From Escherichia coli (GTDB lineage Bacteria > Pseudomonadota > Gammaproteobacteria > Enterobacterales > Enterobacteriaceae), in NCBI RefSeq assembly GCF_003018255.1, contig NZ_CP027440.1: 64,000 nt of DNA; one strand, given 5' to 3'. Numbering within the stretch: position 1 is the stretch's first letter; the number at the start of each line of letters is the position of its first letter. A program made the position numbers and the translations under genes. Positions 43,368 to 47,629 of the stretch are shown piece after piece. The notes under the pieces were generated by a model. That model ran no database searches. It saw only the letters and a list, made by a program, of their open reading frames with translations, and was not told where the DNA came from.

Positions 43368-44602
43368 TACAGGCCTCCGAACAACGCGTTAAATGGTTCT
43401 ACTTCCACCCATTCGCCCGCTTCTACATTGCCGCGCTCGCGTTCCAGTACGATAAAGCAGTTGCCGAGGCTAAAAGAGCTAAATATATGTGAGCCCTGAT
43501 GCCCGGTGGTGGTGACTTCCAGTTCACCGTCAGCATTACGTTGCAGCACGCCGCGCTGGAAATCAAGGCGTCCTGGCGATTTCTTCAGAGGCGATGTCGT
43601 GCGTACGCGCTGACGCGCGGGCAGGCCGCTGGCGGTGTTGCCGCTCAATTTTGCCAGTAACGGCTGTACCAGTTGATAGAAGGTCAGCGTTGCTGAAACC
43701 GGATTACCCGGCAGGCCGCAGAACCAGCTATTGCTGAGTTTACCGAACGCGAACGGTTTACCCGGTTTAATCGCCAGCTTCCAGAAGGCGATTTCACCCA
43801 GCTCTTCGAGAATGGTTTTGGTGTAATCCGCTTCACCCACTGAAACACCGCCGGAACTGATCACTACATCCGCCTGGCTGTCGGCTTCAATAAATGCGGC
43901 GCGCAGGGCATGGGGATCGTCGCGGATAATCCCTAAGTTGATTACCTCGCAACCCAGCTGTTCTAACATCAGGTGTACGGCGAGACGGTTGGTATCGTAG
44001 ATTTGGCCATCGCCCAGTGGCTGACCAGGCAACTGGAGTTCATCACCGGTAGAAAACAGCGCTACACGCACTTTACGAATCACCGGAACTTCGGCAATCC
44101 CCAGTGAAGCAATCACTGGCAGTTCAGCGGTAGTCAGGCGAGTTCCCGCCGGGAAAACAACCGCACCTGCAGAGATATCTTCACCGCGACGGCGAATATT
44201 TTGCCCGCTACGCACTTCAGCAGTAAAACGCACGCCATTGTCCGTTTGTTCAGTCTGCTCCTGCATCACCACCCCTTCGCAGCCTTCTGGCACCGGCGCA
44301 CCGGTCATAATACGAATGCAGGTACCCGCAGGCCATTCACCATGGTACGGCTGACCGGCAAAGGATTTACCGGCAACGGGCAGCGGTTGCCCGGAGGCAA
44401 TATCGGCTAAACGCACCGCGTAGCCGTCCATAGCGGAGTTATCAAACCCCGGGACATCCAGTGGCGAAACGACATCGCTCGCCAGAATACGACCAAAACA
44501 CTGAACCAGTGGCAGCGTTTCCTGGGCGGTCAGTGGGGTAACGCGAGAAAGCATCTCATTAAGCGCGGTGTCGAGCGACATCAATCCGGTGGTAAATTCC
44601 AT
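43367..44602 (-). CDS. moeA: Molybdopterin molybdenumtransferase
   Basis: 411 aa; stop/start overlap with moeB. Confidence 0.95.
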
Positions 44603-44805
44603 GAAAACACTCCTGCGGAGGCAAAATCGAATTTGCCTATTATGTCAGAAAAACGCCACAGACTGTATGCCACCTCGGGCGTAGTGCTGGCTCCTGCCTT
44701 TACATGCCATATCCATCTTTCTATATTCAAAAATTGAATGAGTAATTCATAAAAATTCTGATATTTATAGCAAAAGTGGCGAGCCACCCTTAATGGACGA
44801 ATACT

Positions 44806-45771
44806 ATGGGCAAAGCTGTCATTGCAATTCATGGCGGCGCAGGTGCAATTAGCCGCGCGCAGATGAGTCTGCAACAGGAATTACGCTACATCGAGGCGCT
44901 GTCTGCCATTGTTGAAACCGGGCAGAAAATGCTGGAAGCGGGCGAAAGTGCGCTGGATGTGGTGACGGAAGCGGTGCGTCTGCTGGAAGAGTGTCCACTG
45001 TTTAACGCCGGAATTGGCGCTGTCTTTACGCGTGATGAAACCCATGAACTGGACGCCTGTGTGATGGATGGTAACACCCTGAAAGCCGGTGCGGTGGCGG
45101 GCGTTAGTCATCTGCGTAATCCGGTTCTTGCCGCCCGGCTGGTGATGGAGCAAAGCCCGCATGTGATGATGATTGGCGAAGGGGCAGAAAATTTTGCGTT
45201 TGCTCATGGCATGGAGCGCGTCTCGCCGGAGATTTTCTCCACGCCTTTGCGTTATGAACAACTACTGGCAGCGCGCGAGGAAGGGGCAATGGTTCTCGAC
45301 CATAGCGGTGCGCCACTGGATGAAAAACAGAAAATGGGCACCGTGGGGGCCGTGGCGTTGGATTTAGACGGCAATCTGGCGGCAGCCACGTCCACGGGCG
45401 GAATGACCAATAAATTACCCGGACGAGTTGGCGATAGTCCCTTAGTGGGGGCCGGATGCTACGCCAATAACGCCAGTGTGGCGGTTTCATGTACCGGCAC
45501 GGGCGAAGTCTTCATCCGCGCGCTGGCGGCATATGACATCGCCGCGTTAATGGATTACGGCGGATTAAGTCTCGCGGAAGCCTGCGAGCGGGTAGTAATG
45601 GAAAAACTCCCTGCGCTTGGCGGTAGCGGTGGCTTAATCGCTATCGACCATGAAGGTAACGTCGCGCTACCGTTTAACACCGAAGGAATGTATCGCGCCT
45701 GGGGCTACGCAGGCGATACGCCAACCACCGGTATCTACCGTGAAAAAGGGGACACCGTTGCCACACAGTGA
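44806..45771 (+). CDS. iaaA: Isoaspartyl peptidase / L-asparaginase (Ntn hydrolase)
   Basis: 321 aa; autoprocessing/nucleophile region GTVGAVALD. Confidence 0.92.
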
Positions 45772-47629
45772 TGAACTTGATGCCGGTGATGTGCTGGCGG
45801 TTGAAAATCTGAATATTGCCTTTATGCAGGACCAGCAGAAAATAGCTGCGGTCCGCAATCTCTCTTTTAGCCTGCAACGCGGTGAGACGCTGGCAATTGT
45901 TGGCGAATCCGGCTCTGGTAAGTCAGTGACTGCGCTGGCATTGATGCGTCTGTTGGAACAGGCGGGCGGTTTAGTGCAGTGCGATCAAATGCTGTTGCGG
46001 CGGCGCAGTCGTGAAGTGATTGAACTTAGCGAGCAGAGCGCTGCACAAATGCGCCATGTGCGCGGTGCGGATATGGCGATGATATTTCAGGAGCCGATGA
46101 CATCGCTGAACCCGGTATTTACTGTGGGTGAACAGATTGCTGAATCTATTCGTCTGCATCAAAACGCCAGTCGTGAAGAAGCAATGGTCGAGGCGAAGCG
46201 GATGCTGGATCAGGTACGCATTCCGGAGGCACAAACCATTCTTTCACGTTATCCGCATCAACTCTCTGGCGGGATGCGCCAGCGAGTGATGATTGCGATG
46301 GCACTGTCATGCCGCCCGGCGGTGCTGATTGCCGATGAGCCAACCACCGCGCTGGATGTCACTATTCAGGCGCAGATCCTGCAATTAATCAAAGTATTGC
46401 AAAAAGAGATGTCGATGGGCGTTATCTTTATCACTCACGATATGGGCGTGGTGGCAGAGATTGCCGATCGGGTACTGGTGATGTATCAGGGCGAGGCGGT
46501 GGAAACGGGTAGCGTCGAACAGATTTTTCATGCACCGCAACATCCTTACACCCGTGCGCTGTTAGCTGCTGTTCCGCAACTTGGTGCGATGAAAGGGTTA
46601 GATTATCCCCGACGTTTCCCATTGATATCGCTTGAACATCCAGCAAAACAGGAACCACCCATCGAGCAGAAAACGGTGGTGGATGGCGAACCTGTTTTAC
46701 GGGTGCGTAATCTGGTCACCCGTTTCCCTTTGCGCAGCGGTTTGTTGAATCGCGTAACGCGGGAAGTGCATGCCGTTGAGAAAGTCAGTTTTGATCTCTG
46801 GCCTGGCGAAACGCTATCGCTGGTGGGCGAGTCTGGCAGCGGTAAATCCACTACCGGGCGGGCGTTGCTGCGCCTGGTCGAATCGCAGGGCGGCGAAATT
46901 ATCTTTAACGGTCAGCGAATCGATACCTTGTCATCCGGTAAACTTCAGGCTTTGCGCCGGGATATTCAGTTTATTTTTCAGGACCCTTACGCTTCGCTGG
47001 ACCCACGTCAGACCATCGGTGATTCGATTATCGAACCGCTGCGCGTACACGGTTTATTGCCAGGTAAAGAAGCGGCTGCACGCGTTGCGTGGTTGCTGGA
47101 GCGCGTGGGCCTGTTACCGGAACATGCCTGGCGTTACCCGCATGAGTTTTCCGGCGGTCAGCGCCAGCGCATCTGCATTGCTCGCGCGTTGGCATTGAAT
47201 CCAAAAGTGATCATTGCCGACGAAGCCGTCTCGGCGCTGGATGTTTCTATTCGCGGGCAGATTATCAACTTGTTGCTCGATCTCCAGCGTGATTTCGGCA
47301 TTGCGTATCTGTTTATCTCCCACGATATGGCCGTGGTAGAGCGGATTAGTCATCGTGTGGCGGTGATGTATCTCGGACAAATTGTTGAAATTGGTCCACG
47401 GCGCGCGGTCTTCGAAAACCCGAAGCATCCTTATACGCGTAAATTACTGGCGGCAGTTCCGGTCGCTGAACCGTCCCGACAACGACCGCAGCGTGTACTG
47501 CTGTCGGACGATCTTCCCAGCAATATTCATCTGCGTGGCGAAGAGGTTGCAGCCGTCTCGTTGCAATGCGTCGGGCCGGGGCATTACGTCGCACAACCAC
47601 AATCAGAATACGCATTCATGCGTAGATAA
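45758..47629 (+). CDS. gsiA: Glutathione ABC importer ATPase (two fused ABC domains)
   Basis: Two Walker A motifs GESGSGKS; N-terminus PHSDELDAG has only an in-frame TTG (45758), overlapping the iaaA stop by 14 bp; the ORF-track ATG at 45650 lies inside iaaA. Confidence 0.85.

Follow-up and report, generated by a model that had tools for sequence, protein, structure and literature searches.

The iaaA–gsiA junction of Escherichia coli

The stretch of DNA considered here (64,000 nt in length and referred to as the window; positions are counted from its first letter) contains the iaaA-gsiABCD region of E. coli. The features at the junction of iaaA and gsiA are collected in Table 1. The product of the iaaA open reading frame (ORF) was matched by the NCBIfam equivalog model NF007589 over residues 1-321 of 321, with a score of 714 bits (cutoff 567). 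In the gsiA frame, the codons that follow the TTG (cca cac agt gat gaa ctt gat) read P H S D E L D, and the iaaA ORF ends with a TGA beyond this TTG, so that the two reading frames share 14 nt. An earlier note on this DNA had placed a TTG in frame before the sequence PHSDELDAG and overlapping the end of iaaA, and both codon reading and the ORF list bear this out. The note was equally right to place the nearest in-frame ATG at 45650, where the mechanically called ORF in the gsiA frame begins; this ORF encodes 659 aa, 36 codons more than the TTG form. An in-frame GTG nearer to the TTG was overlooked in that note. The description of the junction is a reading of codons and not a statistical signal, and the question of chance hardly applies to it.

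Table 1. Features at the iaaA–gsiA junction, in window coordinates
Feature	Position	Strand	Basis
iaaA CDS (beta-aspartyl / isoaspartyl peptidase), 321 aa, TGA at 45769-45771	44806..45771	+	ORF list, NF007589, RefSeq (K-12, GF43)
In-frame ATG, 36 codons 5' of TTG, rejected as start	45650..45652	+	Weak pairing, not conserved, substitution pattern
In-frame GTG, 6 codons 5' of TTG, rejected as main start	45740..45742	+	Weak pairing, not conserved
iaaA AAA (Lys) codon where most related genera have the stop TAA	45745..45747	+	Alignment A1, upstream protein tails
Shine-Dalgarno AAGGGG of gsiA, inside iaaA, 6 nt 5' of TTG	45746..45751	+	Duplex with 16S rRNA 3' end, alignment
gsiA initiation codon TTG	45758..45760	+	Start in RefSeq K-12 b0829 and PGAP GF43, orthologous codons, NF007613 position 1
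gsiA/iaaA overlap, 14 nt, TTGCCACACAGTGA (gsiA 5' end, iaaA 3' end)	45758..45771	+	Codon reading, ORF list
gsiA CDS, 623 aa, glutathione ABC importer ATP-binding subunit, two fused ATPase domains	45758..47629	+	NF007613, RefSeq

The junction was found throughout the species. Of 5426 complete E. coli genomes, 5425 gave a match to a 701-nt junction query, in every case with the genes annotated as iaaA and gsiA, the best identity being 99.4% (strain GF43), and the 30-mer at 45743-45772, which holds the Shine-Dalgarno sequence, the TTG and the overlap, was present at 100% identity in 5233 of the 5426 genomes. Five of the 5426 junction matches lay on plasmid-labelled records, and one genome carried two copies. 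In the H30 record NZ_CM172609.1, only 675 of the 701 nt were matched and the annotation names a generic ABC-domain protein, pointing to a disrupted gsiA in this record.

Existing annotation and the GsiA family model

The TTG start of gsiA, overlapping iaaA, is already known and is the accepted reference annotation. In the RefSeq record of K-12 MG1655, iaaA (b0828) occupies 866568-867533 and gsiA (b0829, NP_415350.2; formerly yliA) occupies 867520-869391, again with a 14-nt overlap, and K-12 position 867520 is the first base of this very TTG, the surrounding junction sequence being identical. The identity between the window and K-12 extends over 45698-45789, taking in the Shine-Dalgarno sequence, the TTG, the overlap and the iaaA stop, and both proteins are 623 aa long; the two genes differ elsewhere, and only by strain-level substitutions such as D11 in the window versus N11 in K-12. 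The same TTG was chosen by PGAP as the start of gsiA in the closest strain, GF43. The gene order is that of iaaA-gsiA-gsiB-gsiC-gsiD in the collinear K-12 annotation, with the iaaA ORF upstream and a gsiB-like ORF downstream of gsiA in the window.

The family model gives the same boundary. The curated NCBIfam equivalog for GsiA, NF007613, which is 623 positions long, scored 1376 bits (cutoff 1077), and its positions 1-623 match the long ORF from residue 37, which the TTG codon encodes, to residue 659. In a collection of 15 billion proteins, the 623-aa K-12 form was recorded on at least 1000 contigs, a 659-aa form on six and a 629-aa form, which begins at the GTG, on three. The longer forms thus exist on few contigs, and therefore some pipelines have called them, albeit rarely.

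TTG was described as a ‘rare’ start in the earlier note; it reportedly initiates about 3% of E. coli genes. This wording holds in the sense that TTG is uncommon, but it is not exceptional: codons other than ATG account for about 12% of the starts annotated in E. coli (PMC9825163). The TTG start of gsiA is an ordinary feature.

Conservation of the start codon in related genera

The position of the start was followed across the Enterobacterales in a scan of one genome per species, which yielded 80 gsiA loci, 33 of which have a match that reaches residue 1. The codon aligned to the TTG is a start codon in 32 of these (TTG in 10, GTG in 12 and ATG in 10), which come from Escherichia, Citrobacter, Salmonella, Enterobacter, Klebsiella, Leclercia, Lelliottia, Buttiauxella, Cedecea, Rahnella, Mixta and others, the exception being an Enterobacterales metagenome-assembled genome in which, from a reading of its junction sequence, an ATG lies seven codons upstream. 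At 20 of the 32 loci, an in-frame stop is found 4-28 codons upstream with no ATG, GTG or TTG in between, and therefore the aligned codon is the sole start that retains the conserved N-terminus.

A second comparison, alignment A1, was made from eight Escherichia and Citrobacter sequences and 14 sequences from other genera. Neither the T and G of the start codon nor the CC of the proline codon after it varies in this alignment, a Shine-Dalgarno sequence of the form AAGGGG or AAGGAG is conserved, and the eight Escherichia and Citrobacter sequences show no difference in the 14-nt overlap. The junctions of Enterobacter, Klebsiella, Salmonella, Lelliottia and other genera resemble that of E. coli in the position of the start, in the Pro-His-Ser N-terminus and in the AAGGGG or AAGGAG motif. 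They differ in that many of them begin with GTG or ATG and in that the iaaA stop, TAA, is located 10-11 nt ahead of the start, inside the Shine-Dalgarno region, hence without overlap.

Shine-Dalgarno strength and competing start codons

Five in-frame candidate starts were compared by pairing the 20 nt upstream of each with the 3' end of 16S rRNA. The TTG at 45758 gave -7.8 kcal/mol, with six pairs formed by AAGGGG, whilst the values for the others were -1.5 kcal/mol (ATG 45650), -3.0 kcal/mol (GTG 45740), -3.0 kcal/mol (GTG 45791, with a spacer of only 2 nt) and +0.4 kcal/mol (ATG 45824). The TTG is therefore alone among the five in having a good Shine-Dalgarno sequence, with a 6-nt spacer that falls within the range of about 5-9 nt expected before a genuine TTG start. 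The TTG start that the earlier note had called probable agrees with RefSeq, with PGAP, with NF007613, with 32 of 33 relatives and with the one good Shine-Dalgarno sequence.

The alternative that gsiA begins at ATG 45650, such that the first 36 residues of a 659-aa protein are encoded by the 3' region of iaaA in another frame, was also raised in the earlier note. This ATG is the nearest one in frame, the reading frame is open from it and the 659-aa form has been annotated on the six public contigs, but the comparative data contradict the extended protein and it is scarcely credible. The ATG has no Shine-Dalgarno sequence, adjoins a hairpin that is predicted to be stable (-16.7 kcal/mol, z -2.28) and is missing from E. 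albertii, and most other genera have the in-frame stops mentioned above. NF007613 leaves the residues of the extension uncovered, and homology to the ATPase domain starts about 10 residues past the TTG. When the 108 nt between ATG 45650 and the TTG were compared with six Escherichia and Citrobacter relatives, the gsiA frame showed three synonymous and 82 non-synonymous codon changes, the iaaA frame 77 and nine, respectively; this stretch therefore evolves as iaaA coding sequence without constraint at the protein level in the gsiA frame. ATG 45650 was rejected as a start on Shine-Dalgarno strength, conservation and substitution pattern.

A further possibility is that gsiA is translated wholly or partly from GTG 45740, giving a 629-aa form, perhaps as a second proteoform beside the TTG form. 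As a start codon, GTG usually outperforms TTG, and this one is in frame in both the window and K-12 and has been annotated as the start on the three contigs with the 629-aa form. Against it stand the weak pairing with the anti-Shine-Dalgarno sequence and the codons found at this position in relatives (GCG in the two other Escherichia species, E. albertii among them, and GGG in Citrobacter), which make it unconserved even among close relatives. In addition, a study using INRI-seq, in which synthetic RNAs from -30 to +120 are translated in vitro with retapamulin, lists no alternative initiation site for gsiA, though the construct includes GTG 45740 (PMC9825163 Table S3). As the main start GTG 45740 was thus discarded, being unconserved in other Escherichia and Citrobacter and weak in its Shine-Dalgarno sequence; the proposal as a whole is very improbable, and in E. 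coli this GTG is a formally possible minor start.

Initiation downstream of the TTG, at GTG 45791 or ATG 45824, would leave PHSDELDAG untranslated. Both are start-type codons in frame, and published data contain no experimental initiation signal at the TTG itself, but the Shine-Dalgarno sequences of these two codons are poor or absent and the position of GTG 45791 is occupied by GTA, GTT or GTC in relatives. The N-terminal PHS(D/E)EL is kept at the protein level with mostly third-position changes (CCA/CCG, GAA/GAG, CTT/CTG), and a start at ATG 45824 would cost the ATPase domain its first conserved strand. The Protein Data Bank (PDB) yielded no structure of GsiA, only homologues such as Rv1281c and DppD, which align from residue 9-12. 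The conservation of PHS(D/E)EL together with ABC ATPase homology from residue 9-12 therefore makes a downstream start very unlikely, and both codons were set aside on pairing, codon conservation and family alignment. The start of gsiA at TTG 45758 is thus shown by the combination of annotation, conservation, Shine-Dalgarno strength and substitution pattern.

RNA structure at the junction

Sequestration of the gsiA ribosome-binding site in an RNA structure was considered as a coupling device and rejected, as no conserved or significant fold was found. RNAalifold gave -1.37 kcal/mol for the junction with no covarying pair, and hence no conserved structure, and neither the -30 to +15 region nor the INRI-seq construct folded better than shuffled sequence. 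A long-range helix is predicted in E. coli between 45726-45738 and 45779-45790 (-25.6 kcal/mol, z -1.76), which, as read from the alignment, is broken in Citrobacter. The predicted hairpin next to ATG 45650 spans 45621-45646 inside iaaA (the GCGGUAGCGGUGGCUUAAUCGCUAUCG region), directly 5' of that codon, and four of 200 shuffled sequences folded as well.

Origin of the overlap

Alignment A1 also indicates how the overlap arose. All 14 sequences from other genera read GAA-TAA-GG at the end of iaaA, versus GAA-AAA-GG in Escherichia and Citrobacter (GAG-AAA-GG in Citrobacter sp. FP75). In the other genera, IaaA ends ...IYRE*, with the TAA inside AATAAGG(G/A)G and 10-11 nt before the gsiA start; in Escherichia and Citrobacter, eight further residues (KGDTVATQ) follow before a TGA is reached inside gsiA. 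The change from TAA to AAA in these two genera therefore identifies the overlap as a lineage-specific loss of a stop codon. Judging from the aligned sequences, the overlap is a derived state, in which the ancestral iaaA stop TAA (inside AATAAGGGGG) was changed to AAA, so that iaaA is read eight codons further, into gsiA. Salmonella retains the TAA, therefore the change was common to Escherichia and Citrobacter, or arose twice, or was transferred.

Other forms of the junction were observed elsewhere: TAATG or TGATG in Buttiauxella and Cedecea, and ATGA in Rahnella. The distances from the iaaA stop to the gsiA start were +11, -13/-14, -2 (TAATG or TGATG) and +1 (ATGA), and were at most 14 nt wherever the stop was located by script. 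At five loci where the script located no iaaA stop, a reading of the junction sequences showed a TAA (a TGA in one) just 5' of the start. In Salmonella enterica subsp. diarizonae, the 3' end of iaaA (about 2380-2500 of that locus) is divergent, ending ...RLNRDTPGTGIYRE*, and the script found no long ORF in a non-gsiA frame ending near the gsiA start, therefore iaaA may be rearranged or disrupted there.

Published initiation and N-terminus data

As a check on the start of gsiA, the earlier note had proposed initiation-site profiling or N-terminal proteomics, and published data of both kinds exist; neither the TTG nor an alternative start is detected in them. By INRI-seq, the gsiA site at 867520 gave 0 CPM in five of five replicates with the RNA present at 151 CPM (PMC9825163 Tables S2-S4), the in vivo Ribo-RET value for gsiA is also 0 (PMC9825163 Table S2), and gsiB, gsiC and gsiD were detected by INRI-seq (PMC9825163). 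The null result for gsiA is unspecific, because INRI-seq missed about 30% of annotated starts, that of iaaA itself among them (PMC9825163); it is compatible with weak stand-alone initiation at the TTG that needs coupling. For iaaA, the annotated ATG (K-12 866568, window about 44806) was seen in one of five replicates (PMC9825163 Table S2), and an in-frame ATT 15 nt downstream (866582, window about 44820) was reported as an alternative site in three replicates (PMC9825163 Table S3).

The N-terminomics supplement of TRAINSPOTTER does not list gsiA, and a Salmonella riboproteogenomics supplement has no gsiA entry. A literature search on the gsiA start codon and retapamulin returned nothing relevant, and no direct proof of the N-terminus was found in it. 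The annotated N-terminus of IaaA is listed in the TRAINSPOTTER supplement.

Co-transcription and translational coupling

Coupled overlapping gene pairs in bacterial operons have ATGA or TAATG junctions, and re-initiation takes place near the stop codon. The iaaA–gsiA pair is similar to these in that both genes are on the same strand, stop and start are at most 14 nt apart and the Shine-Dalgarno sequence lies inside the upstream gene, and the classical forms are themselves present in the orthologues of Rahnella (ATGA) and of Buttiauxella and Cedecea (TAATG or TGATG). It differs in that its 14-nt overlap is longer than the commonest overlaps of 1 and 4 nt. In the literature, iaaA and gsiABCD have been described as operonic (PMC10355420), and the five genes have been grouped as co-regulated targets of CysB (PMC3224099). 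The sole sigma-70-like match in 44400-46400 is TTTACA-17-TATATT (10/12) at 44699-44727, upstream of iaaA in the space between moeA and that gene; this is a candidate operon promoter, recognized from its match to the consensus, with one such site found versus 1.3 expected by chance. A consensus scan revealed no terminator-like site on the + strand at the iaaA–gsiA junction. iaaA and gsiABCD would thus probably form one transcription unit, and translational coupling of gsiA to iaaA is plausible.

Taken as a whole, the most convincing account, and one that is very probably correct, is that gsiA is translated from TTG 45758 as a 623-aa protein, with ribosomes recruited through AAGGGG and probably with assistance from iaaA, and that the overlap arose by stop loss. 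The AAGGGG, lying 6 nt 5' of the TTG within the last codons of iaaA, would recruit ribosomes to gsiA. The iaaA stop is positioned 11 nt 3' of the TTG, and therefore ribosomes terminating on iaaA probably contribute to gsiA initiation, which may occur through local re-initiation or through clearing of the site. A stronger and more speculative version can be put forward, which we consider rather unlikely: initiation at the weak TTG would be essentially obligately coupled to iaaA, the stop loss would have retuned the IaaA:GsiA output, and E. coli might make the 629-aa proteoform from GTG 45740 in minor amounts. Were coupling obligate, the zero stand-alone initiation of gsiA in vitro would be explained, and on this version the TAA-to-AAA change would have shifted iaaA termination across the gsiA start, from a site 13 nt before it to one 11 nt past it.

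The relevance of these findings beyond the quality of annotation is small. They confirm the TTG start of gsiA in the reference and identify the 659-aa and 629-aa forms in databases as over-extended calls. The understanding of the glutathione importer is changed neither by the stop-loss origin of the overlap nor by the absent initiation signal, whilst the missing experimental initiation signal for gsiA may be of interest for work on translational coupling and on the annotation of start sites.
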